From a candidate division FCPU426 bacterium (GTDB lineage: Bacteria > Oederibacteriota > PGYV01 > Palsa-1178), in NCBI GenBank assembly GCA_963840035.1, contig CAWIXE010000002.1:1600001-1664000 (forward strand): DNA of 64,000 bases, given 5' to 3'. The position numbers and the translations under genes were made by a program. Below, piece after piece: positions 47,071-64,000 of this stretch (positions are counted from its first letter, which is position 1; every line of letters starts with the position of its first letter). Under the pieces are notes generated by a model. That model searched no databases and was not told the DNA's origin. It saw nothing but the letters and a program-made list of their open reading frames with translations.

Positions 47071-47904
47071 TTAAAGCAAAGTCCCCTGCTGAGCATCCAT
47101 CATCTGCTTCATCCGCTTCGCGTTTTTAACCGCCGACCCCGCGTGGCAATTATTTAAAAATATAAACATCTTCTTTGACTGCTCAGCCATCTTTTTCACA
47201 TCCGGTAGGAAGGACTTCAGTTCCTCGTCCGTATATAAGTAATCATACCTGACCTCAGATGGCGCGTTGAACCAGTTCTTGTTCCTTCCGTGGAGGCGGA
47301 AGTACGCCACATCAGAGGTCACTTCCGGCTTAAACGGCATAAGCCTTTCAAGCGGCGGCTCGTCCACGGCGCAGTATCCCAAGTCATATGCCTTTAAAAA
47401 CGAGAACGTCTCATCCTTTGCCCAGTGGCTGTTGCGAAACTCAATAATCAGGGGCATGCCTTCAAAGGCTTTTTTGCAGTTTATTATATAGGCTTCTGAC
47501 TCTTTTGACGGATAGAAAAACACCGGGAACTGAAGGAGTATGCCGCCGAGCTTGCCGGCTTCTGAAAACGGTTTAAGGGAGTATTTGAATTTCTCAATGT
47601 CGGAAAATGCCCTGTCCATAGAAGGCTGCTTTTCACCAAGCCTGGTGTCAAAGGGGTCATGGGTAAATCCCCTGAACCCCTTTACAACAAATTCAAAACC
47701 TTTTGAAGTCTTCTGCTCCATGGCAAAAGCGGTCTTGTCCGACAGGAGGGCGTAGTAGGTGGCGTTGACCTCAAGCGTGTCAAAACCAAGTTCTTTCTGG
47801 TAGTATATGAGTTCTTCTTTTTGAGGCAGGCCCTGGGGGTATATAACCCCTTTTCTCCAGTCAGGGAAGGAAAAGCCTGAGGTGCCAATTTTTACTACTC
47901 CCAA
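47071..47904 (-). CDS. DUF72 (YecE/UPF0759) protein
   Basis: IGTSGFSFPDW, EVNATYY, LLQFP, EFRN..W, YFRLHGRN, RYDYLY, NNC; tail QQGTLL. Confidence 0.93.
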   Translation of the reverse strand: MGVVKIGTSGFSFPDWRKGVIYPQGLPQKEELIYYQKELGFDTLEVNATYYALLSDKTAFAMEQKTSKGFEFVVKGFRGFTHDPFDTRLGEKQPSMDRAFSDIEKFKYSLKPFSEAGKLGGILLQFPVFFYPSKESEAYIINCKKAFEGMPLIIEFRNSHWAKDETFSFLKAYDLGYCAVDEPPLERLMPFKPEVTSDVAYFRLHGRNKNWFNAPSEVRYDYLYTDEELKSFLPDVKKMAEQSKKMFIFLNNCHAGSAVKNAKRMKQMMDAQQGTLL

Positions 47905-47931
47905 ACGCTACCTCCTGTATACATTTTATTA

Positions 47932-48267
47932 TTATACAAAAATTTCCTGCCTGACAACCTCAAGTATGCTTTCAGTATACTTCAAAGCATCATTATCCCA
48001 AAATCTTAGCACTATATAACCACAACCCCGCAAATAATTGTCCCTGATTTTATCATTGCCGGCCTTTTCTGCGTGCTGTCCCCCATCAAGTTCAATTATA
48101 ATACTTTTTTCATAACAAATAAAGTCCGCAATGTATTTCCCTACGGGTTCCTGCCTTTTAAATTTCAGGTTAAAGAACCTCCTTCCCCTTAAATAATTCC
48201 ATAATTTCCTTTCAGCGTCTGTCTGTTTCTTTCTTAAATCCCGCGCATACTCAACCAGTTTATCCAT
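47932..48267 (-). CDS. DUF559 (Vsr-like) endonuclease
   Basis: ARDLRKKQTDAE..LW, FKRQEP, IADF, IELDGGQH, VLRFW. Confidence 0.93.
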   Translation of the reverse strand: MDKLVEYARDLRKKQTDAERKLWNYLRGRRFFNLKFKRQEPVGKYIADFICYEKSIIIELDGGQHAEKAGNDKIRDNYLRGCGYIVLRFWDNDALKYTESILEVVRQEIFV

Positions 48268-48278
48268 TATCCCCCCTG

Positions 48279-48575
48279 TCCCCTCACCCTACCCTCTCTC
48301 CCCCGCAAGGGGGGACTATAAATAGCCGGGGGAGAGGGATAAAAAGGCGTTTTGTCTTTTACCTTCCTCCCCTCTCCTCTTAGGAGAGGGGGCTGGGGTG
48401 AGGTGAAACAAGTACCTACTTCCCCTCACCCTACCCTCTCCCGGGGGGAGAGGGATGAAAAGACGGTTTGTCTTTTACATTCCTCCCCTCTCCTCTTAGG
48501 AGAGGGGGCTGGGGTGAGGTGAAACAAGTACCTACTTCCCCTCACCCTACCCTCTCCCGGGGGGAGAGGGATAAA
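48279..48575. repeat. Array of CCCTCACCC/CCCTCTCC palindromic elements next to DUF559
   Basis: 3x CCCCTCACCCTACCCTCTC..GGGGAGAGGGAT alternating with 2x inverted CCCCTCTCCTCTTAGGAGAGGGGGCTGGGGTGAGG. Confidence 0.9.
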
Positions 48576-48596
48576 AGAACAACTCCAACTTACAAC

Positions 48597-49826
48597 CTAC
48601 TTTATAAGACGTGTGCTCATTATTCCACACCGTTCCAAAATCCCGTGCTTTTCGGCCTTTATTATAGATGACGGTTTTAAAGTAAACGCCCCGTACTTGT
48701 TGTTTATCTCGTCCATTACCTCCATCAGTTTCTGTTTCCTTTCCATGTTCTCAAACAGATACTGCTGCCCGTGCCCCGTTGCCGTGTTTGATATACTCAC
48801 CCCAAGCAGCCTCACTTTCTTCTTCAACGGCATCAGCTTCTCGAATATCTTCCACGCCTCCTCAAAAAGTTCCACCCCGGAGTTGAAGTAGTGGTGCAGC
48901 GTGGCGCGGCTGCAGTGCATCTCAAAATCCTCAAAACGCACAGCCAGGAACGCAGTCCTGCCCAGGAGCTTGTACTCGCGCAGCCGGACGGCTGTTTTTT
49001 CCGACAGCATCAAAAGAAATGACCTTATCACGCTTATATCCATGGTATCAGCAGGCAGGGTGTGGCTGTGGCCCACTGACTTTACCGGGCTCTCGTAGTT
49101 ATATCCTTTTACATCCGATGAATCTTTACCCAGGCCTATGTTCTTATACATCCTGCCCAGTATGCCAAAGTTATCCTTGAGCATGCGTTCGTCCGCCATG
49201 CCGAGTTTTTTGGCGGTATCAATGCCGAGCGACAAAAACTTCCTTTCCAGCTGCCTTCCTATGCCAACACCCTGCAGTTTTGAGACCGGAAGGTTTTCCA
49301 TGAATGCGGGAACATCCGCTTCCCGGACAATGACAAGGCCGTCCGGCTTTTTTGACTTTGCCGCTATCTTTGCCACCACCTTATTGGGGGCTATGCCTAT
49401 GGAACACAGAAGCCCCAGTTCGTCTTTAATCCTTTTTTTCATCTCCATGGCGGCTTTTTCCCCTCCACCAAAGAGCTTCTCGGTAGTTGTCAGGTCCATA
49501 AAGCATTCATCTATGGAAAAAACCTCGACCTTGTCCGTGTAATCAAGGAGTATCTTGTGTATGCGTATGGATGTGTCCACGTATTTATCCAGGTTGCCGA
49601 CGACAGGAATGAGCCGCGGGCACAGTTTCCTTGCCTCGGGTATGGTCATGCCGGTCTTTACCCCATACGCGCGCGCTTCGTAGGAAGCGGTGGTGATTAT
49701 AGTACGGCCCTGGCCGCATACGCCAATAGGCTTGCCGCGTAAAGACGGGTTGCAGTTCTGTTCGACAGAGGCAAAATAAGCATTCATATCTATAAGGAAG
49801 ATTGTGCGTTCCGGGGATTGGGTCAT
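48597..49826 (-). CDS. dinB: Y-family DNA polymerase IV
   Basis: DMNAYFASVE, SYEAR.YGV, SIDECF, KPDG, KSVG; clamp-like motif QQYLF. Confidence 0.95.
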   Translation of the reverse strand: MTQSPERTIFLIDMNAYFASVEQNCNPSLRGKPIGVCGQGRTIITTASYEARAYGVKTGMTIPEARKLCPRLIPVVGNLDKYVDTSIRIHKILLDYTDKVEVFSIDECFMDLTTTEKLFGGGEKAAMEMKKRIKDELGLLCSIGIAPNKVVAKIAAKSKKPDGLVIVREADVPAFMENLPVSKLQGVGIGRQLERKFLSLGIDTAKKLGMADERMLKDNFGILGRMYKNIGLGKDSSDVKGYNYESPVKSVGHSHTLPADTMDISVIRSFLLMLSEKTAVRLREYKLLGRTAFLAVRFEDFEMHCSRATLHHYFNSGVELFEEAWKIFEKLMPLKKKVRLLGVSISNTATGHGQQYLFENMERKQKLMEVMDEINNKYGAFTLKPSSIIKAEKHGILERCGIMSTRLIK

Positions 49827-49853
49827 GTGGTTTCCTTGCTTTCAATATTTGGA

Positions 49854-50105
49854 TTAAGCTATAAGTTCCGTTTTTTCAAGCATCCATTCCAGGGTTTTTT
49901 GGTTAAATGAAAGTTCATAGTAACCGCCATCCCCTGAGACTGAAAAATGCAGTATCATAGCCGCGCCTTCCGCCGTGTTCCAGCAGTAGGATACGGTCTT
50001 TACATCTACCTTCCGTTCCTTCCACTTGAACCACTTGGGCTCTATCCTGTTCTTTGAAAAAACAGCGCCGACCTTTATCTTCTCGTTTATAACTGTCACG
50101 CTCAT
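49854..50105 (-). CDS. Small beta-rich protein between lexA and dinB (DUF6504-like)
   Basis: ATGA-coupled to the lexA stop; P.WF.W...V...W......F.V....YEL.F.....W.L pattern. Confidence 0.75.
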   Translation of the reverse strand: MSVTVINEKIKVGAVFSKNRIEPKWFKWKERKVDVKTVSYCWNTAEGAAMILHFSVSGDGGYYELSFNQKTLEWMLEKTELIA

Positions 50106-50686
50106 TTTATCTTCCTTATGACGCCGACTACCTTGCCCATGACGCTGGCATCCCTGGAAACTATGGGGGAATACTTGGGATTTTCAGCTTTGAGTTTTAC
50201 CCCGTCATCTGTCATATAAAATGTTTTTACCGTGGCCTCGGAACCCAAAAGAGCCGCGACTATCTCGCCGTTCTCGGCTGTTTTTTGTTTCCTTACGATG
50301 ACGGTGTCTCCGTCATATATTCCGGCGCCCGTCATGGAGTCCCCGGCCACCCGCAGCGCAAATAGGTCCCTCAACCCGAAAATATCAGTTATGCTGCTTA
50401 TGCGTTCCTCTATATTTTCTATGGCATCTATGGGAAGGCCGGCGCTTATGCGTCCTAAAAGGGGTATCCCCGCGGATTGATTTAAAAGCTCGATCCCTCT
50501 GGAGACATTTTTGTTCAGTTTAATATAACCCGCATCCGCCAGTTTTTTTAAATGGTGCCTTATGGTCCAGGTCGATGACAAACCCGACTGTTTTGCAAGC
50601 TCCCTTAGTGTCGGCGGAGCCCCATGTTCCTCAAACCAATCTGTGATTTTTTCCAGGACCTTGCTTGTCTGCGCTGTGAGTTTCAT
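50102..50686 (-). CDS. lexA: LexA repressor
   Basis: PPTLRELA winged HTH, SAG cleavage site, GDSM Ser, TVKT Lys, ENP. Confidence 0.93.
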   Translation of the reverse strand: MKLTAQTSKVLEKITDWFEEHGAPPTLRELAKQSGLSSTWTIRHHLKKLADAGYIKLNKNVSRGIELLNQSAGIPLLGRISAGLPIDAIENIEERISSITDIFGLRDLFALRVAGDSMTGAGIYDGDTVIVRKQKTAENGEIVAALLGSEATVKTFYMTDDGVKLKAENPKYSPIVSRDASVMGKVVGVIRKIK

Positions 50687-52725: not shown

Positions 52726-55700
52726 TTATTGCTTATATAGGACCGAGAATTTAAGGGTCTCCATCTTTATCTCGCCCGTATCCTTAATGGCCCTTACCAC
52801 CGCGACATACACCCCTACCGAAACAGGTTTATCTGTGGCGGTTTTCAGGTTCCACTGCATGGATCCTGACTGAATGGTTCCCTCTAAGCCGCGTACCAGC
52901 TCTCCCGCTTCATTATATATATCGGCCCGTATCTTGCCTGAAGCGGCGGAAGCCCATGCTATATTTATAAACCTGCCGGCCGCCGGATTTACATAAACCG
53001 GATTCGGGAATGATTTAAAACCGCTAATCCAGTCCGCATTACCGCTGTTTAAGACTGTTATTTTCTTGGCGGCGGAAGTGTAATAGCCTGAGCCTGAATT
53101 CAGCTCCACCCTGACTTCATATACCCCGGAATCCACAAGCCTTCCTCCGTCATTTTTCCCATCCCACTGTACAACCGCGCCCGGCGCGTATTCTATGTCT
53201 ATGGGCGAGCTGCCTTTACCTATGCCGGCCGTTTCTAAAAGGCCGAGGTCCCCAAGCGTGTGCGGCACATAATCCGCGGTTATCCTGCGCACAGCCTCGC
53301 CCGCGCTGTTATAAATGCTTACCCTTAGTTTCTTATCAATCCTTACCACCTGCACATCTTTTATCGTGGTCTGAACGTGGTCATACGTGTCGATAAACGA
53401 TACTTTTATATAATATAAGCCAGGCGTTATATTTTGGCCGCCGTCATTATCCCCGTTCCATGTGAATTCCGCGGTCATATCCCCGCCTTCCTGTCCCGGT
53501 GTCTGAATTCCCGGCAGGATCAGTTTTAATTCATCCTGGGACGCGTTAAAAACGGATTCTTCCAGATCATTGATGAGCATCAGGACATTCACGGGATTGT
53601 CCGTAACCGGGGCTTCGACTATGAGCTTAACCAATTCACCCGCTGAATTAAAAGCCTCGATTTTCATTATATACGGATATGGAACCGGGGTCGGGGACGC
53701 AGTCGGTGACAGCGTATTTGTGGGCGAAGCAGTCTGGGTATAAGTCCGGGTGGCAGTAGGTGTCGCCGTCATAGTGCATGTCCGGGTGGGTGTGGATGTC
53801 CTGGTATAAGTCATGGTAAAAGTCGGCGTCGCGGTATTTGTAGCGCTGTATGTCGGCGTGTGCGTAAAAGAAGGAGTTGGCGTGGCCGTATAAGTAGGTG
53901 AAGTGGTATAAGTCACGGTTATAGTACCCGTGTATGTGGGCGTGGCCGTTGATGATGGCGTCATGGTGGATGTTGCTGTATAAGTCGGCGTGTTTGTCAT
54001 GCTTGATGTAGGCGTGGCCGTTTCCGTCGCGGTAAAAGTAAATGTGGGTGTGTTCACCGGAGTGTCTGTAAATGTCGGCGTGCAGGTGGGAGTATTTGTC
54101 ATGGTCTGTGTATTTGTTTTTGTCAATGTGAAGGTATACGTGGCAGTTTCCGTGTAAGTGTAAGACTGTGTGGGTGTATAAGTCATGGTCTTTGTCTGGG
54201 TATATGTAGGCGTTTCCGTATAAGTGAAAGACTGCGTCGGGGTATATGTCATGGTCTTTGTCTGCGTATAAGTGGGAGTTTCCGTGTAAGTAAATGACTG
54301 CGTCGGCGTAAACGTCATGGTCTTTGTCTCGCTGTATGTGGGTGTGGCCGTATTAGTGCTTGAAGGCGTCGGCGTGAATGTTATAGATTCCGTCACGGTA
54401 AACGTCGGCGTCGGAGAAGAAGTCAGCGAAGGCGTCGGGGTAAAAGTTACCGATTGCGTGGCTGTAAAAGTGGATGTGCTTGTATATGTCACCGTATGCG
54501 TGGGCGTATTTGTATTTGTGTATGTTCCCGTAAAAGTCGGGGTCGGCGTGTATGTCAATGTCGCTGTCGGAGTTGCCGTAGCCGTGTTCAGTGTAGTAAT
54601 GGTATAAGTCAGGGTAAGCGTTGCCGTAGATGTCATGGTATAAGAAGGCGTCGCCGTGTAAGTAAATGTCTGCGTGGGCGTAAATGTAAACGTCGGCGTG
54701 CTTGTATTTGAGGAAGTCGCGGTAAATGAAGGCGTCATGGTCGGAGTATGCGTGGGTGAAGTCGTATATGTATAAGTGGATGTGGGCGTGGCTGTATACG
54801 ATTGTGTCGGGGTCGCCGTCATAGTCGGCGTATAAGTCTGTGATTGCGTTGCCGTATAGGTGGAAGTATTTGTCGGGGTGGGCGTGCGCGTATAGGTAAA
54901 TGTCGGCGTGGGAGTTGCAGTATAAGAGAAAGAAGGCGTCGGCGTCGCTGTATAAGTGAAAGTAGGAGTGTGCGTCTGCGTGGCCGTATAAGAAAATGAC
55001 GGCGTAGGTGTGGCTGTATAGGTGGAAGTAGGCGTACGGGTCGGCGTGGCCGTATAAGAGAACGACGGCGTAGGCGTTGCCGTAAATGTCAAAGACGGCG
55101 TGTACGTCGGCGTGGCCGTATACGAGAACGACGGTGTGGGAGTTGCCGTATATGTTAAAGTCGGCGTGTACGTCGGCGTGGCAGTATAAGAGAACGACGG
55201 CGTGGGCGTTGCCGTAAATGTCGAAGTCGGCGTACGGGTCGGCGTGGCTGTATACGAGAACGACGGCGTGGGAGTTGCCGTAAATGTCAAAGTCGGCGTG
55301 TGCGTCGGCGTGGCCGTATACGTTAACGACGGAGTAGGCGTAGCCGTCTTTGTCGCCGTAAAAGTGGACGTCTCTGACGGTGTAATGGTACGGGTGTACG
55401 TAGACGTAAATGTTATTGTCGGTGTTGATGTCCGCGTCGCCGTATAAGTCGCGGTCGGACTTTGCGTAATTGTATAAGTAGCAGTATATGTCATGGACGG
55501 CGTTGATGTCCTTGTAAAAGTCTGGGTATTTGTCCTTGTCGCGGTCCTGGTTGCAGTCGGCGTCGGCGAAGCGCATATGTTCGTCATCGGCACAATCGAT
55601 TTGATTGCAGGCGTTGTCTGGTAATTCAGTATCCCGTCATTATGCCAAGTACAGCTGCCCACTGTGCCAAGGGTAAGGGTTAAGGGCAGGTCCACACAAG

Positions 55701-57557
55701 TGTCAAATCCCGGCGAAGTGAAATGTATAACGTATATAAATTTTTTATTTGCCATATCATTGGTCAGTGAAACGCCTGATATGCCCGGGGACGAGCCTAT
55801 ATAGTAAGGACCGTCGAAAGTCCAGGTGTCAAGCGAGGAAGAATAATCATCAGTTATTGTAAGGTCGCCGGAAGATACATACCCTCCCGTGTTGCATACA
55901 TGAAGATTAAACGTGAGCTTATCCCCCGAGACCAGGTTTGTTGTTTTATTCGCGGTTTTTAATATTGTAAAAACAGGCGGCATGGGCGTTGGCGTGCACA
56001 GGTCTGTCATGGGCACGGTTGATACTATTACCGGTGATGCGTAATAACTCAGCGTTGCGTCATTATGCCACGAACAATTCCCCACGGTCCTTGACGTAAT
56101 ATGCGTATTAAGCGGCAGGTCCATGCAGCCTTTAAAACCTGGCTGTTTAAAAACAATTGTATACGTCGCTTTTCTGTTGCCCACATCCTGGTTCAGCGAA
56201 ATACTATTAACGCCAGCCGGCGCGGTCCAGCTGTAGGGCCCGTCAAATGCCCAGTTGTCATTATTATTAGACCAATCATCGACTATGGTCATAGTCCCCT
56301 GATATGCCTCCCCCCCGGTATTGCAAACACGCAGATTATAAGTTAATTTATCATCCTGCAATATGTCCGTGGTCTTATTAGCCGTTTTTAAAAGCGTAAA
56401 TGCAGGGGCAGGCGGACAGTAGTTTGTCACCTGCACTGACGCTACAGGAGTCGGAAAAGCAAGGTACTGCAGCCCGGCAACATTATGCCAGGTGGAACAA
56501 AACGTAGGCGACTCGCCCCAGTCAAGGCCCAGGGGAAGAGTAAGGTTATAACATAAAGGGCCCATCGGAAACCCGTCGACAAAAGTTACATCAACGCCCT
56601 TCGTAGTCTGTGTAAACGTAATTTTTCCAAGTACCGGGTCTGTGTAATCCCCACCCCTGAAATGCCATTCATCCGGCGAGTCGGTCCACACATCATGGAT
56701 CACCACCGGCGTCCCTGCCGAACCTCCCGCACCGGCGGCATTGCACACGCGCACGACAAATGTAACGGAATATGGCGTCGACTGCCCGAGCGGGGTCGTG
56801 GGCGTTACGAATTTCTGGATGGTAAAGGTCGGAGGCGGAAGAGTCGGCTGCGGTGTCATGTTAAAAGGCTGCCTGAAATAAAGCGTGTGGCATGTGGTTG
56901 TAGGATAAGCAGCTGCCCAGCTGAGCGCGCGAAGAACGGTCCTTGTGCGCGGATCCTGTATCCTTTTCCCCCATTTCTGCGTAGTCATATCAACGGGGTC
57001 CACCCAGGATAGGCCGGAGCCTGCCTGATTATATGCCTTTTCATACCAATTAAGGCCGCCTGTAGGAGGCGGAGTAAGCGCCGGATTCGCGCATGTCGGG
57101 TCGTCATACATCTTTACCCCCGCGTCATCGCTGCCGACATAAACATGCGCGCCTGCGGGGGTCGAGCAGGTAATATCAAGCGACCATGACGCCCACACCT
57201 CGTCATTTGCCGTATTCTGATTTTTAACCGCGATGTAATTGTTTGTATCTGTCAATAAAGCCATCGTAGCGGCGTCAAGGTTTACGCACAAAGGCAGGCA
57301 GCGGCGCCGCCGGGTTCTATATTACAGTATGGAAAATAACCATCACCGACCCCGGTGGGTATCTGCACGCCATTTATCCAGATATACGCAAAGTCATCTA
57401 CCGCGGCGCATAGCCTGGCCGCAGTTGGAGCGCATGCTGAAGCGGCGGACAGGTTTAACGTGAAGACCGGTACGAGGAGGACAAGCACTGAAATAAAAAC
57501 AAAAAACTTTAGCGAACTATGGGTCATAGAATCGCAGCCCGCTTTGCTTTGATTCAT
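52726..57557 (-). CDS. Giant secreted protein: signal peptide, N-terminal domain, 3 DUF11-like modules, ~630-aa Thr/Pro linker, 3 FlgD-Ig/CTD-like domains; frameshift near 57295
   Basis: ORF 57282..57557 holds the signal peptide and overlaps 52726..57291; KTANKT..LT.NL..CN..G modules; FPNP near the C-terminus. Confidence 0.85.
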
Positions 57558-57781
57558 TCTTTCCCCGATTTTGGAGTTTTTAAGGCGCTTTGCTCCTTTA
57601 AAATTATAGAATATAAGGCGATTATGTCAACGATAAAAGGCTGGTTAAAACGATATAATTTAAACCGGTTTTATAAGGTGATTAATCGGTTAATACGGTT
57701 TTTATTATGGGGTAAAGCCTTAAAAACCGGGAATCGGGAATGGATTTCTTGCAGGAATGCAATATCACCTACAGCGGCCTT

Positions 57782-60700
57782 TTAGAACTTCCTGATCACC
57801 GACACTTTTGTTGTAACAATTTCAGTCTCTCCCGAATCCTTTTGGGCATGTATTATTATAATGTATAAACCGCTTGAGACTTTTTCACTGCTGCTGTTTG
57901 CCAGATCCCACAAAGCCATACCCGGCGTTAAAGGCGCTTCAATCCTCGCTACAAGCTCAGCCGTCTGGTTATATATATCTATGCGCGCCTTTCCTGCCCC
58001 GTTCGGCACCCACGTAATTTTTATGGGTTTAACCAGGCCGTTTACGACATATACGGGGTTTGGATATGCCTTCACCCCGGTTATGATGTCCTTCGCATCC
58101 AGCCTTAGCACTGTTATGGTCTTTGCCGATGTTGTCTCAAAACCCGTCCCGCTGTTTAGCTCCACCCTGACCTCGTATATTCCGCTGTCAACGAGCCTGC
58201 CCTGCGAATTCTTCCCGTCCCAGTCCATTGACACTCCGGCGGCATATTCAATGCTTATCAATCCCGCGCCTTTTCCCACTGCAACCGTATCCATCATGCC
58301 GAGTTCCTGCAGTTTATCGGGAACAGTCGGCGCGTTCATCCTCCTGATTACTTCCCCCGCGCTGTTATATATGCTGATCCTGAGGTATTTATCCTTATAC
58401 AGCACCTGTATTTCCTTTATTACCGAAACCTCATGGTCATATTCATCCACGTATGAATATTTTATGTAATATGTGCCGGCTTTGATAACCTGGTTGTAAT
58501 TATTTGTACCGTCCCAGTTAAACTCCGATGTCAGGTCCCCGCCTTCCTGTCCAGGCGACTGTATTCCCGGGAATTTTATGTTAAGAAGCCCGGCTGTCGG
58601 GTCAAAAGTGCCTGTTGCCTGCCCGTTTTCAGTCATGACTACCCCGTTGTCCTTGAACTGTTCGGATATTAGAGACTTGGCAATGAGCTTAACTATTTCT
58701 CCAGCGGAATTATACGCCTCAATTTTCAGTATGTACGGATATGGCACCGGAGTCGGTGTAGCGGTTGACGTGAAAGTTATTGTGGGAGTGGCTGTGAACG
58801 TGGACGTGGCCGTATATGTAGGCGTGGCTGTCTGAGTGGAGGTCTTTGTGGGAGTGGATGTGAACGTGGATGTTGCCGTGAACGTCGGCGTGGAAGTCCT
58901 CGTCACTGTATATGTATATGTGGCCGTGTTTGTATAGGTGGGTGTCGCCGTATATGTCGGTGATGTGGTGAACGTATGTGTGAACGTCGGCGTGGCGCTG
59001 GGAGTGGCTGTGGATGTAGCGGTATATGTCCCGGTAAACGAAGGCGTGGGAGTGTTTGTTCTTGTCGGCGTATCCGTATAAGTATCAGTGGAAGTGCGTG
59101 TCGGCGTTGCGGTCATGGTCGCCGTTTTTGTCTGTGTCTGAGTGTAAGTTCCTGTGGCAGTGCGCGTCTCCGTCACGGTTTCGGTAAAAGTACCCGTAGG
59201 AGACGCCGTCCTGGTGTCGGTCGGGGTCGCTGTGGAAGTCGGGGTATCCGGGGCAGTATCCGTCACAGTGGGTGTCGCAGTTTTAGTGTCGGTAAAAGTG
59301 GGTGTTGCAGTGAACGTCGGCGTCGGAGTATGGGTTTCAGTGGCCGTCCTGGTGTAAGTATAAGTGGCTGTTGCCGTAAATGTAGGAGTATGGGTGTATG
59401 TAAAACTTTCAGTAGCGGTAAATGTCTGTGACATTGTGGGCGTATATGACGGTGTTTCAGTAAATGTCTCCGTCGCCGTTCTTGTCGCCGTATATGTGGG
59501 CGTATATGTCATGGACTGTGTTTCCGTATAAGTATCGGTCGCTGTCCTGGTCGCCGTGTAAGTGGGCGTATATGTCACAGACTGTGTTTCCGTGTAAGTA
59601 TCAGTCGCCGTACTTGTCGCTGTATATGTGGGCGTATATGTCATGGACTGTGTTTCCGTGTAAGTATCGGTCGCCGTCCTGGTCGCCGTGTAAGTGGGCG
59701 TATATGTCACAGACTGTGTTTCCGTGTACGTATCAGTCGCAGTCCTTGTCGCCGTGTATGTGGGCGTATATGTCACAGACTGTGTTTCCGTGTACGTATC
59801 AGTCGCCGTCCTTGTCGCCGTGTATGTGGGCGTATATGTAACAGACTGTGTTTCCGTGTAAGTATCGGTCGCTGTCCTGGTCGCCGTATATGTGGGCGTG
59901 TATGTCGTGGATGGTGTTTCCGTATTTGTGTCGGTCGCTGTCCTGGTGGCCGTATATGTGGGCGTGTATGTCATGGACTGTGTTTCCGTGTAAGTATCGG
60001 TCGCCGTCCTTGTCGCCGTGTATGTGGGCGTGTATGTCATGGACTGTGTTTCCGTAAACGTCGCGGTTGATGTCGCGGTATATGTGTATGTCGGTGTAAA
60101 AGTCATGGTCTGAGTTCCCGTATAAGTCGGAGTTGACGTATAAGTGTCCGTCGAAGTCGGTGTCGCGGTTACTGTCACTGTATAAGTGGAAGTGGCTGTG
60201 GACGTGTATGTAAAGCTTGGCGTAGGCGTAGCCGTAAATGTGGATGTGGCTGTGTTCGTCGATGTTGGCGTATAAGTCGATGTCGGTGATGACGTCACAG
60301 TATAAGTCGGCGACGGCGTGGATGTATATGTCGATGTCGGCGTATTGCTTGCGGTGTTGGTCCCCGTAAAGGTGGGTGTCGCGGTAAATGTCTGTGTGTC
60401 CGTAAAAGTTGGCGTGGCCACCGTGTTAGTACTTGTCGGTGTGGACGTGGGCGTCGCCGTCATGGTAAATGTAAATGTCGGCGTCGAGGTGGCTGTATAT
60501 GTTGGTGAAGGAGTATACGTGGAAGTGGGCGTCGGCGTATAAGTGGCAGTATAAGTGCTTGTTGGGGTCTGCGTATATGTAAAAGTCGGCGTCATGGTAT
60601 ACGTCGAGGTGTAGGTCGGCGTCGCGGTAACCGTTGATGTCGGGGTGTATGTCACCGTGGGAGTCGGCGTGGAAGTGCTTGTATATGTGCTTGTCGGCGT

Positions 60701-62591
60701 CTGCGTGGATGTAAAAGTCGGCGTCATGGTATACGTCGATGTGTAGGTCGGCGTCGCGGTAACAGTTGATGTCGGGGTGTATGTCACCGTGGGAGTCGGC
60801 GTGGAAGTGCTTGTATATGTGCTTGTCGGCGTCTGCGTGGATGTGAAAGTCGGCGTCATGGTATACGTCGATGTGTAGGTCGGTGTCGCGGTAAAAGTTG
60901 ATGTCGGGGTGTATGTCACCGTGGGAGTCGGCGTGGAAGTGCTTGTATATGTGCTTGTCGGCGTCTGCGTGGATGTGAACGTCGGCGTCATGGTATATGT
61001 CGATGTGTAGGTCTGCGTCGCGGTAACCGTTGATGTCGGCGTGTATGTCACCGTGGGCGTCGGCGTAGAGGTGCTTGTATAAGTGCTCGTCGGAGACTGC
61101 GTGGATGTGAACGTCGGCGTCATGGTATATGTCGATGTGTAAGTGTTGGTTGCTGTGGATGTCGGCGTGTATGTCACGGAAGGAGTCTGCGTGAACGTGA
61201 CCGAATACGTGGGTGTCATGGTCCTGGTGAATGTGGATGTGGGTGTCACGGTCGCGGTCGGTGACAGTGTCGGTGTAAGCGTCGGTGTTGCGGTTATCAT
61301 GATGAACGCAACGTCATTTGAGGCGCCAAAATTATACCAGGCCATATTATGGACCCCGGTCGGCGTTGCCGACGGCGAAGGCGTTATTGTTGACGTCGGT
61401 GTAAATGTCTTTGTGGCGCATCCGCTTGAACCGCACGGTTCCTCGCCGGTATTCGGGTCCGTTGTGACGACGCTAGTGTATTCGCAGAGCAGAGTATTGC
61501 GCCAGTAAAGGGTCGCGTATTTTACGCTGGAGAAACTCCCTGTCCAGTCGCACGGCCTGGAGTACCAGTTTGAAGTGGCCGGGTTCCAAGCGGGCGTAGT
61601 TGTCAGCTCCCACGCCTGGTTTTTCTGCAGGTAGCCCCCGTTCGGCCCTATCATAAGGTAAGGCCACGAACCGCTGTTCGTCCATCCAAACTGAAAATAT
61701 TTGTTGGCAACCCTCGTGCCTGCTTCGCACGATGCAGCAGCCGCGTTATTAAATGTAGCGCTCTGGTTTGTCGTATTTATATTGCCGTTGGGTATGGAAC
61801 TGCCGTAGGAGTCCTTGCCCGAGTCGTCAAAATTCGACCAGTTCCATGTGTTTGAATCATTTACATAGAAACGAAAATTAACATCTGACGCGAAAACCCC
61901 TGATTCGGACCAGTTTGTTACCTTATACCTCATATTCCATTTATTTCCCGTGCCTCCCGTGCTGGAACACGCTCCGGAATTGAGGAGCTCAAGGTTTAAC
62001 TTATAAGGAGTTGCCGCGCCAACCACGGAAAACTGCGCGGATACGCCGGTGGTGTCTATGTTTGAAGTTGAGTTCGATGAGCACTGGTATCTCGGCCCGT
62101 TCCCCGAGTCTCCGGCATAAGCCGGTATCAGGATGTAATAATTGCCACTTTTTTCCGGCGGTATCTGTGTGATTATCCTTACGTTGTGCCACGCCCCGTC
62201 GCCGTTTACCCCGGGATCAAGGCTGTCGCCTGTATTGGGTCCGTCTACATCAGTGATTGAAGCGCCCGTCGCCGCTTTTGCCACACCGTCATACCACCAT
62301 GTTGTCTGGTTCTTGTATATTCCCCTGGTTTTTGACGCGAGAAAGTCCTGGCTGCACAATGCCAGGCTGCTCCTGTCGGATAACGCAACAACAAACCTCG
62401 GACGCTTTCCGGCGTCGACCATGATCTGAAAGTCAATTGTTATTACCTGACCGGGCGCCGGCGAAGCCGGTGTTATTACGATATTCTGTATCTGCGCGGC
62501 GCCGAAAACCGAGCCCGGAATTAAAAACGCAGACATGAAAACAAACAAGCCTATCCCCGCTTTAAGGGAGAAGCTGCCTGAATTTTTTCAT
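57782..62591 (-). CDS. Giant secreted protein: Ig-like + CBM3-like domain, ~890-aa Thr/Pro linker, 3 FlgD-Ig/CTD-like domains; extra A just after ATG 62591
   Basis: CBM3-like VTN..DVNFRFY..NKYFQFG..NWYS..TLY..GEEP; YPNP; removing one A gives MKNSGSFSLKAGIGLFVF..VFGA. Confidence 0.85.
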
Positions 62592-62609
62592 GTCCGCGCC
62601 TCTTTTCTC

Positions 62610-64000
62610 TCAGATTTTATCCATGCAATCCGCGGGATTACCGCGCGCCGTGGCATATATGGTTATCATGTCGTTCATCCACGCAAGGTATTCGTCAAAC
62701 CTTAAGAACGGCAGCCTCGCGGCCTTGACATAAAAACATATGGTCCCGGCGCCGTTATTGGGTATATTTGCAAGGTCCCAGTAAATTATGGAATAACTTC
62801 CGTCCGGCACTATGGTCTGCCCTGCTGTATCCGTCCCGACATAATCGCATACAAGCGGGATTGTGTCCCATATCCTGAAGCTGGCTGTGCTGCCGGTGGT
62901 ATTTTTGTAATTAAGACAGTAAGTAAATGTCTCCCCGAGCATAATTGTATTTTTGGAGATTGTCTTCGTCAGCTGGACCACTATCGGAAGCGGCGTGCTG
63001 GTTAAAGTCGGCGTCAGCGTCGGGGAAACCGTTATTGTCGGGGTGATGGTGGGCGAAGCGCAGATGCCCCCCGCGTTAATCATATCCACCGTGGAAACCG
63101 CGGCAGGCGTCGCCTGCAGTATGCTCGCATTATTGTGCCAGGTACAGCAGTTCTTTGTCGTCTCGTGCAGGCGCATCGGTATATCCAGGCACGCGCCATT
63201 GCCGAATCCGGGAGATTCAAAGTATATCGTGTAAGTCACTGTATTTCCGGAATTATTGTTGACATAATGGTTGATTCCCGCAACTCCCGGGTTTGTCCAG
63301 TTTGGGCCATCATATTGAAAAACGTCGGTCGAAGACGAAAAATCGTCAAGTACATCTATGGTCCCTGACGTCACTACGCCTCCGGTATTACAGATATGGA
63401 GGGTAAATGTAAGCAGGTCTCCGACGGCGATATTTGATGTTTTATTTGCCGTCTTGGATATAGACCATACCGGAGGAAGCGGTGTCGGGGTGCAAAGGTC
63501 AGCCATATTAACGGAGGTAAATACCGTGGGTGAGGCGAAATAACTGAGCGAGGCGTTATTCACCCAACTGCAGCTCCCGATGTTTTTTGTCTGCATATTG
63601 GCGCCCAGTGGTATGTCCACGCAGCCCGTGAATCCCGGCTGTTCAAAAACAATATCGATTGTCGCCTGCCTGGTCCCCCTGTTTATGTTGATATGGTCAA
63701 TCCCGGGGGCGGGGTCGCCGTAATAAGTATTATAAAGCCAGTTCCAGTTGTCGTTGTTGGAGGAAAAATCATCAAATATTTGTGCCGTACCTGACCATGC
63801 GGGGCCGCCTGTATTGCACAGGTGAAGGTTATAGGATATATTGTCACCCTGCACGATCCCGGTTGTCTTGCTCGCTGTCTTTATAAGCGTCAGGTTAGGC
63901 GGCGGCGGGCAGTAATTATTCAGTGTCACCGTCGCCTCTTTTATCGGTTCAGCTAAATATGCGAGGTCAGCCACGTTATGCCATGTGGCGCAGAATGTAG
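62610..64000 (-). CDS. Paralog of the 52726 protein, 5' end outside the window: DUF11-like modules, short Thr/Pro linker, terminal incomplete DUF11
   Basis: YCPPPPNLTLIKTASKT..CNTGG..CSWVNNASLSY aligns with YCPPAPAFTLLKTANKT..CNTGG..CSWHNDATLSY. Confidence 0.85.
   Translation of the reverse strand, partial: TFCATWHNVADLAYLAEPIKEATVTLNNYCPPPPNLTLIKTASKTTGIVQGDNISYNLHLCNTGGPAWSGTAQIFDDFSSNNDNWNWLYNTYYGDPAPGIDHININRGTRQATIDIVFEQPGFTGCVDIPLGANMQTKNIGSCSWVNNASLSYFASPTVFTSVNMADLCTPTPLPPVWSISKTANKTSNIAVGDLLTFTLHICNTGGVVTSGTIDVLDDFSSSTDVFQYDGPNWTNPGVAGINHYVNNNSGNTVTYTIYFESPGFGNGACLDIPMRLHETTKNCCTWHNNASILQATPAAVSTVDMINAGGICASPTITPTITVSPTLTPTLTSTPLPIVVQLTKTISKNTIMLGETFTYCLNYKNTTGSTASFRIWDTIPLVCDYVGTDTAGQTIVPDGSYSIIYWDLANIPNNGAGTICFYVKAARLPFLRFDEYLAWMNDMITIYATARGNPADCMDKI

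Follow-up and report, generated by a model that had tools for sequence, protein, structure and literature searches.

The cargo of one secreted protein very probably docks on a neighbouring secreted protein through a naturally split domain, as encoded by two adjacent genes in a 64,000-nucleotide stretch of the genome of a candidate division FCPU426 bacterium (positions 1,600,001-1,664,000 of contig CAWIXE010000002.1, hereafter the window; the genome measures 3.46 Mb and is 98% complete). The first of the two, the 62610 protein, ends in a truncated DUF11/CLIPPER domain (the catcher) that retains the Lys and the Asp of an isopeptide-forming triad. The second, a scaffold protein with a Thr/Pro-rich stalk and FlgD_ig-type C-terminal domains (CTDs), carries an orphan two-strand segment with an Asn (the tag). 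Judged from sequences and structural models, once docking is granted a covalent bond between catcher and tag would be likely to follow, and covalent docking of the cargo on the scaffold by a Lys-Asn bond, taken as a whole, is probable.

The terminal domain of the 62610 protein

The 62610 protein consists of a signal peptide, an N-terminal beta domain, three complete DUF11/DUF7507-like modules, a short Thr/Pro linker, the truncated domain and a tail; a FlgD-type sorting domain was not found in it by Pfam scan. With 817 amino acids from stop to stop (805 as called) it is not the giant protein that the original prediction had supposed. Taken alone, the terminal domain scores 24.8 bits with Pfam DUF11 (PF01345, cut-off 24.6), the match covering about positions 2-84 of the 114 of the profile, and AlphaFold2 models it as seven strands with a predicted local distance difference test score (pLDDT) of 91-98 across the domain. 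The best PDB sequence match of a profile of truncated domains is the CLIPPER structure 9IFR (E 1.3e-6). A fold search with the catcher also returned 9IFR (Z 8.9, root-mean-square deviation 2.7, 90 aligned residues), with many immunoglobulin (Ig) folds tied and integrins on top; the domain has the features of a CnaA-like Ig sandwich.

The CLIPPER triad, as described in the main text of PMC12617251, is composed of Lys715, Asn806 and Asp748, and its bond forms within one domain. The Lys on the first strand of the catcher aligns with Lys715, and the putative catalytic Asp aligns with the Asp of 9IFR 34 residues further on, one residue off the spacing of 33 that the published numbers give. In a profile of 16 complete domains of the clade the conserved Asn aligns to chain position 101 of 9IFR, which by the same offset is Asn806, and the truncated domains end a few residues short of its equivalent. 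Of 30 internal domains 26 are followed by a strand-like Asn motif, against 4 of 69 terminal ones (one of these four exceptions being a frameshifted complete domain), and in a control set of giant tandem-DUF11 proteins 1990 of 2667 internal domains have an Asn motif behind them. The terminal domain keeps the Lys and Asp of the triad, and the Asn strand and the last strand are not in the same chain, which supports the split isopeptide domain that had been proposed from the sequence alone. The Asn strands of the complete modules, on which that proposal drew, are present in the two neighbouring proteins. An assembly error at the truncation point was considered and rejected: a short-read contig of 228 bases, possibly from the source sample, is identical to 62648-62875, and the truncation point is therefore not an assembly error there (the contig comes from one small-share DNA run, and it spans neither of the two frameshifts described below).

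The original prediction had the protein end with this domain; instead, a tail of 32 residues that contains an Asn (62673-62675) comes after it. This tail was tried as the missing Asn strand and rejected. AlphaFold2 models it as a helix (residues 99-116 of 127), and the two closest orthologues carry Lys and Asp where the Asn stands. Tails of relatives are unconserved and 0-57 amino acids long with some members tail-less, those of five of the seven catcher proteins in this genome measure 0-2 amino acids, and 0 of 57 tails scores over 3 bits with the hairpin profile of complete domains. The domain is closed by a conserved Pro in 59 of 68 catchers, with the tails coming after it, and an aromatic motif is present in 37 of 58 tails. 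A placeholder helix or a processing signal is a possible role of the tail.

The tag and its scaffold

The orphan segment was confirmed where the original prediction had located it, in the next gene and flanked on both sides by Thr/Pro linkers (Table 1), about 400 residues into the protein. The CBM3-like domain proposed for the scaffold also held up in a Foldseek search, and Pfam CBM_3 gives a weak match in a homologue of the scaffold. At the C-terminus FlgD_ig is recognised; CHU_C and Por_Secre_tail stay below cut-off. That the tag could be part of the scaffold's own domains was rejected, in line with the prediction, which had named completion of a domain in its own protein as an argument against a split. 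In a weak model of the N-terminal 410 residues of the scaffold the tag region is unstructured (pLDDT 33-36), and the first two domains of the scaffold occur tag-less in other proteins, where they precede a catcher instead; they therefore do not need the tag. A single fused protein split by a frameshift was rejected as well: the tag of the scaffold is preceded by a separate signal peptide and two domains, a layout also seen in relatives. The ATG of the scaffold gene at 62591 is out of frame with the open reading frame (ORF) that starts at 62587, which places a frameshift in the signal-peptide codons (62560-62591), and the orthologous scaffold in locus L040 is intact with a continuous signal peptide.

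Behind the scaffold gene lies a fused paralogue, in which the same cargo modules (59% identity to the 62610 protein over 586 amino acids) are joined straight to a stalk and FlgD-type CTDs, with neither catcher nor tag. It is frameshifted near 57300 into the pieces 57282-57626 and 52726-57321; the upstream piece encodes the signal peptide together with the beginning of the first domain. Among the relatives described below, the FlgD-type motif occurs in 0 of 61 catcher proteins versus 18 of 22 complete tag scaffolds (of the remaining four, two look frameshifted and two end in a shorter CTD-like domain). Because the fused paralogue joins cargo to stalk in one chain, catcher proteins lack the FlgD-type domain and the scaffold's domains are independent of the tag, the split pair appears to substitute for gene fusion and would attach a CTD-less cargo to a stalk that bears the likely sorting signal.

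Pairing of catchers and tags in this genome and in relatives

The genome has seven truncated terminal domains and six tags. On contig C3 three catcher genes are followed by a gene for a 5426-amino-acid scaffold with three orphan Asn islands, and at 1.2 Mb on contig C2 there are two catcher genes, behind each of which lies the gene for a single-island scaffold. A tag profile built only from relatives and run on the 19,446 ORFs of the genome placed five of the six tag segments at the top, and these sit in the four genes that come immediately after truncated-domain genes (the first tag of C3 was not among the 25 best rows). Tags occur in 4 of 4 Thr-rich proteins encoded directly behind a catcher gene versus 0 of 108 others (Fisher p 1.6e-7), in a test that is not fully blind, the seed patterns having been written after the tags of this genome had been seen. 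The catcher encoded at C1:911471 is 84% identical to that of the middle C3 gene, and the cargo only 26%.

Some further observations concern the proteins of these families in the genome. In the C3 scaffold (G000:C3:409735-426015) roughly 4500 residues of Thr-x repeats separate the three tags from the C-terminal domains. There are 112 Thr/Pro-rich proteins genome-wide, many of them ending in a CTD-like domain of roughly 95 residues, and several DUF11 domains are interrupted by inserted domains. A DUF11 protein at G000:C3:265931-268767 is apparently frameshifted in its last hairpin and overlaps the next ORF; it is not a true catcher.

The relatives' loci (40 stretches around the best matches plus ten short loci, selected from 331 matches) hold 61 terminal truncated domains. 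A tag is found in the adjacent gene cluster for 46 of these (three of the tags having been seen by eye, below the profile threshold), and 10 lie at contig ends or gaps. Numbers of catchers and tags within clusters are 1:1 in most cases and 3:3 in L041; L056 has three alternating pairs, two catchers and two tags occur in each of L037, L038, L042, L053, L054 and L071, and in L039 two tags accompany an intact catcher gene and a broken one of the second type. The tags occupy internal sites, roughly 170-720 residues into the ORF and bordered by Thr/Pro linkers. The co-occurrence of truncation and tag across this genome and its relatives, anticipated in the original prediction, was thus found, with matching numbers and classes. 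Four of the loci (L037, L038, L042 and L071) have a three-gene chain, in which one gene encodes a catcher only, the middle one a tag and a catcher, and one a tag and a stalk; the arrangement looks like that of a tip, an adaptor or shaft, and an anchor.

A whole-genome tag search of 61 genomes yielded 51 matches in 19 genomes, comprising 42 seeds, one match identical to a seed and eight new ones; of the new ones, seven belong to clusters that contain a truncated-domain gene, and the eighth is located at a contig end. Most of the matches come from the order of this genome (17 of 23 other genomes), and one from a different order. The search missed tags seen by eye in genomes G020 and G029, and the tags in G029 and G052 suggest that distant ones escape it. 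Metagenome loci have the same layout, though many represent the same organisms. A homologue search found two other proteins only; in a search of 1.84 billion representatives the best 150 matches are all giant tandem-DUF11 proteins, which are silent on the spread of the truncated form. Two giant tandem-DUF11 proteins (P0014 and P0111) end in a domain without an evident Asn hairpin, and similar splits may therefore exist in other lineages.

Conservation and class matching

Lys and Asp are the sole invariant columns in 68 of 68 truncated domains, which share 18-49% identity with that of the window. The similarity of catchers tracks the similarity of their tags (rho 0.82 across 29 one-to-one pairs; 0 of 5000 permutations). 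Since neighbouring genes are passed on together, the C-terminal 320 residues of the same scaffold were taken as a control: their correlation with the catcher is 0.25 and the partial catcher-tag correlation stays at 0.82 (21 pairs), with the reservation that recombination in the stalk could still uncouple this control. At the three-gene loci the same catcher and tag classes recur from genome to genome. L053 and L039 have neither the third class of catcher nor the first class of tag, and this joint absence suggests nested pairing. In genome G010 a beta-propeller and a GH5 cellulase carry catchers that are 91% identical, each encoded before a scaffold with a near-identical tag. Compared with the hairpin profile of complete domains, 22 of 42 tags score over 3 bits versus 373 of 2100 shuffles.

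In one tag class (L002:1958-2065 and L002:11655-11762), the partner of a distinct class of catchers, the hairpin turn lies between two Cys; the sequence makes a disulfide-closed hairpin likely.

Features of the window

The features on which the analysis rests are listed in Table 1. Elsewhere in the window, a LexA-like repressor, a DinB-like polymerase and a DUF72-like gene stand in a row (47071-50686), which we take to be an SOS mutagenesis-type cassette.

Table 1 Positions in the window of the catcher and scaffold genes, their domains and the fused paralogue
Feature	Position	Strand	Remarks
Catcher (cargo) gene, 3' part	62610..64000	(-)	ORF extends to coordinate 65063, outside the window
Truncated terminal DUF11/CLIPPER domain (catcher)	62709..62993	(-)	Seven predicted strands, without Asn hairpin
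Putative isopeptide Lys, first strand	62964..62966	(-)	Aligns with Lys715 of CLIPPER 9IFR
Putative catalytic Asp, middle	62865..62867	(-)	Aligns with the Asp of 9IFR, 34 residues past the Lys
C-terminal tail, 32 residues	62613..62708	(-)	Predicted helix
Scaffold gene, about 1600 amino acids	57782..62591	(-)	Signal peptide, Ig-like, CBM3-like, tag, Thr/Pro stalk, FlgD-type C-terminal domains
Ig-like N-terminal domain of scaffold	62018..62503	(-)	
CBM3-like domain of scaffold	61412..62023	(-)	Foldseek best match CBM3a 1NBC, E 2.6e-6 (query model with mean pLDDT 60)
Orphan two-strand tag, 21 residues	61295..61357	(-)	Asn at 61346-61348; Thr/Pro linkers on both sides
Thr/Pro-rich stalk, about 850 residues	58751..61294	(-)	
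FlgD_ig-type C-terminal domains of scaffold	57785..58750	(-)	Pfam FlgD_ig, E 3e-12; likely sorting signal
Fused paralogue	52726..57626	(-)	Same cargo modules joined straight to stalk and FlgD-type C-terminal domains

Proposed mechanism and alternative explanations

We propose that both proteins would be exported by Sec and would meet in the periplasm or at the surface, where the orphan segment of the scaffold likely folds as a hairpin into the gap of the catcher, a CLIPPER/DUF11 domain without its last two strands. A Lys-Asn isopeptide bond would then likely form spontaneously, catalysed by the conserved Asp and requiring no enzyme. The cargo would in this way gain a stalk and a C-terminal sorting domain that it does not encode, as the fused paralogue has them in one chain. 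With different classes of catcher and tag, as many as three distinct cargos could be carried by one scaffold, and a given dock could be used by unrelated cargos.

Several points weigh against this proposal. Five of the 61 catchers in the relatives have visible context but no tag, two nearly complete genomes (G022, 99%, and G023, 96%) have catchers but no tag match, and in the present genome the catcher gene at C1:911471 stands alone, with no tag-bearing gene behind it. The window's scaffold gene may itself be broken or mis-assembled, its frameshift being due either to an indel in the assembly or to decay of recent date. Complete domains, too, retain Lys and Asp (20 of 21 and 19 of 21), and part of their invariance may therefore be structural. 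The invariance of the Asn in 47 of 47 tags is circular, since the tag alignment was anchored on that residue. The correlations are inflated, because neighbouring genes are inherited together and related organisms do not count as independent cases. The likeness of tag to complete-domain hairpin is not significant by hhalign (probabilities 0.8% and 1.5%, P 0.07 and 0.035), the window's own tag does not outscore its shuffles, 6 of 50 and 9 of 50 of which reach its level, and the spacing from the Asn to the second strand, 9-10 residues in 39 of 40 matching tags, is shorter than in most complete domains. Prediction of the complex of catcher and tag (from alignments of 68 and 47 rows), with scores of 0.02 and 0.22 against a mark of 0.32 and with controls that likewise were not folded, speaks neither for nor against the proposal.

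The closest alternative to covalent docking keeps the tag as a donor hairpin that completes the catcher and makes the complex non-covalent or slow-reacting, as in chaperone-usher pili. The genomic pairing fits it equally well, the shorter loop of the tag is in its favour, some DUF11 domains have no bond according to the main text of PMC12617251, and BsaA oligomers are reported to be stable without the bond until heated (10.1101/2024.11.04.621531). We consider it unlikely nevertheless, since Lys and Asp are the only columns that never vary among the truncated domains and every tag found, partly by selection, has the Asn opening its first strand. Less likely still is that the truncated domain and its tail act as a stand-alone sorting or processing signal for an export or anchoring machine, with the tag a separate element inherited in the same operon. 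The truncated domain is always C-terminal and takes the place of the FlgD-type domain (0 of 61), the closing Pro and the aromatic motif of the tails would suit a signal, and orphan catchers exist; this explanation leaves one tag per catcher, class matching and joint class loss unexplained, catcher similarity follows that of the tag rather than that of the C-terminal domains of the scaffold (0.82 against 0.25), and five of the seven members in this genome have practically no tail.

Two further readings are given little weight. Completion of the terminal domain by its own tail, or a seven-stranded sandwich that is stable without a partner, would agree with the Asn in the window's tail and with the high confidence of AlphaFold2 for the domain alone; we regard it as highly improbable, the tail being modelled as a helix, orthologues lacking that Asn, and tails in general being variable, with none of 57 above 3 bits against the hairpin profile. 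The prediction had itself named folding with the domain's own tail as what would speak against a split, and the results point the other way. The most improbable explanation of all is that neither half has a function and both are left over from an ancient gene fission or from the decay of surface genes rich in repeats, as the frameshifts in the scaffold gene and in the 52726 gene might suggest: the tag lies deep inside a gene that has its own signal peptide and two other domains, and the arrangement recurs in at least 19 of the 61 genomes searched with invariant catalytic residues. Covalent docking of the cargo on the scaffold is the reading we favour.

Comparison with known systems

In its Lys715 and Asp equivalents the catcher resembles CLIPPER 9IFR, from which it differs in stopping before the Asn, the Asn segment sitting in another protein. 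The words 'split', 'donor' and 'truncated' are absent from the main text of PMC12617251. The original prediction had drawn a parallel with SpyTag/SpyCatcher; DogTag/DogCatcher, engineered from RrgA domain 4, is the closer one. As described in PMC8878318, R2Tag and DogTag represent a split Lys-Asn domain reconstituted from an internal hairpin; the DogCatcher holds the Lys and an acid, and the tag is a 22-23-residue Asn-bearing beta-hairpin suited to internal sites. That pair is artificial, belongs to another domain family, uses a Glu catalyst and has its Asn late in the hairpin, whereas the split here is natural, the putative catalyst is an Asp, the Asn stands at the beginning of the hairpin and there are several classes side by side.

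In BsaA of Clostridium perfringens, donor strands are reported to be exchanged naturally and then fixed by an Asn-Lys bond between molecules that forms by self-catalysis, with the mutation-tested residues N35, K74 and E56 (10.1101/2024.11.04.621531). BsaA has, according to the same report, a TasA-like fold and a single N-terminal donor strand and forms a homopolymer; the system in the window differs from it in the CLIPPER fold, the internal two-strand tag and the heteromeric pairing of cargo with scaffold. Archaeal threads (Saci_0406) and chaperone-usher pili share with the window's system an incomplete Ig-like fold completed by a strand of another chain; in donor strand and self-catalysed bond the thread is a looser parallel than BsaA. 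As presented in PMC9715654, they have an N-terminal donor strand and a filament of one subunit, the thread bond joins an Asn to the N-terminal amine, and the usher pili need a chaperone and an usher. Of the hallmarks of donor-strand fibres, an acceptor with an incomplete beta sandwich is present at the window locus; the donor strand is not at the mature N-terminus, and donor and acceptor are separate proteins.

Cellulosome scaffoldins are CBM3-bearing, linker-rich proteins with several cohesin-dockerin docking sites, and the interchangeable cargos that they receive end in a small docking module. The system described here shares the CBM3-like, linker-rich scaffold, the small docking module at the end of interchangeable cargos and the adaptor-like chains. 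Its polarity is reversed, with the short tag on the scaffold and the folded domain on the cargo, and at most three tags per scaffold were seen (at other loci; the window's scaffold has one). Cohesin and dockerin gave 0 matches in the 98% complete genome, the control producing matches in 2 of 14 genomes. A cellulosome-like assembly without cohesin-dockerin, as the original prediction put it, accordingly stands as far as the logic of the scaffold and the missing modules go; the implied function was overstated because a catalytic glycoside hydrolase was recognised in only 1 of 65 Pfam scans of catcher proteins (one GH5; one protein was scanned twice, and many cargo domains have no Pfam match).

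With respect to the export route, PorV-like proteins gave four matches in the genome, all below cut-off, and SprA_N gave no match, controls included; the C-terminal domain of the scaffold may, from its sequence, serve a type IX-like export.

None of the three categories of intramolecular CLIPPER, homopolymer fibre and cellulosome fits the feature, although its scaffold logic resembles that of a cellulosome. A natural split DUF11 tag-catcher system was not found in the literature searched, a body without most subscription journals, and what the analysis adds is the internal tag, the presence of several tags per scaffold, the class matching, the swapping of cargos and the fused paralogue.

Implications

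Spontaneous isopeptide tag-catcher pairs are among the most used tools of protein engineering and were, in the papers cited above, made by splitting domains in the laboratory. If the proposal is true, some 50 evolved small pairs (about 90 + 21 residues), possibly orthogonal and loop-friendly, would be available to engineers.

The genome is treated here as a member of the Goldbacteria clade, a Candidatus Goldiibacteriota bacterium being among the named relatives, and the phylum is reported to be cellulose-degrading (PMC7031533). More tentatively, and with the odds somewhat against so broad a picture, Goldbacteria and their kin could possess an expandable set of orthogonal covalent tag-catcher pairs with which branched or chained surface complexes are built without a ligase. 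One scaffold would accommodate up to three cargos, stand-alone cargos would compete in trans, the middle protein of the chains might polymerise like a pilus shaft, and CTD-less cargo would ride on its scaffold through type IX-like export. The natural intermolecular isopeptide cases known are homopolymer fibres; covalent docking of cargo on scaffold through an internal hairpin tag and several co-evolved classes, if true, would amount to a new mode of assembling and anchoring surface complexes and to a covalent equivalent of cohesin-dockerin.

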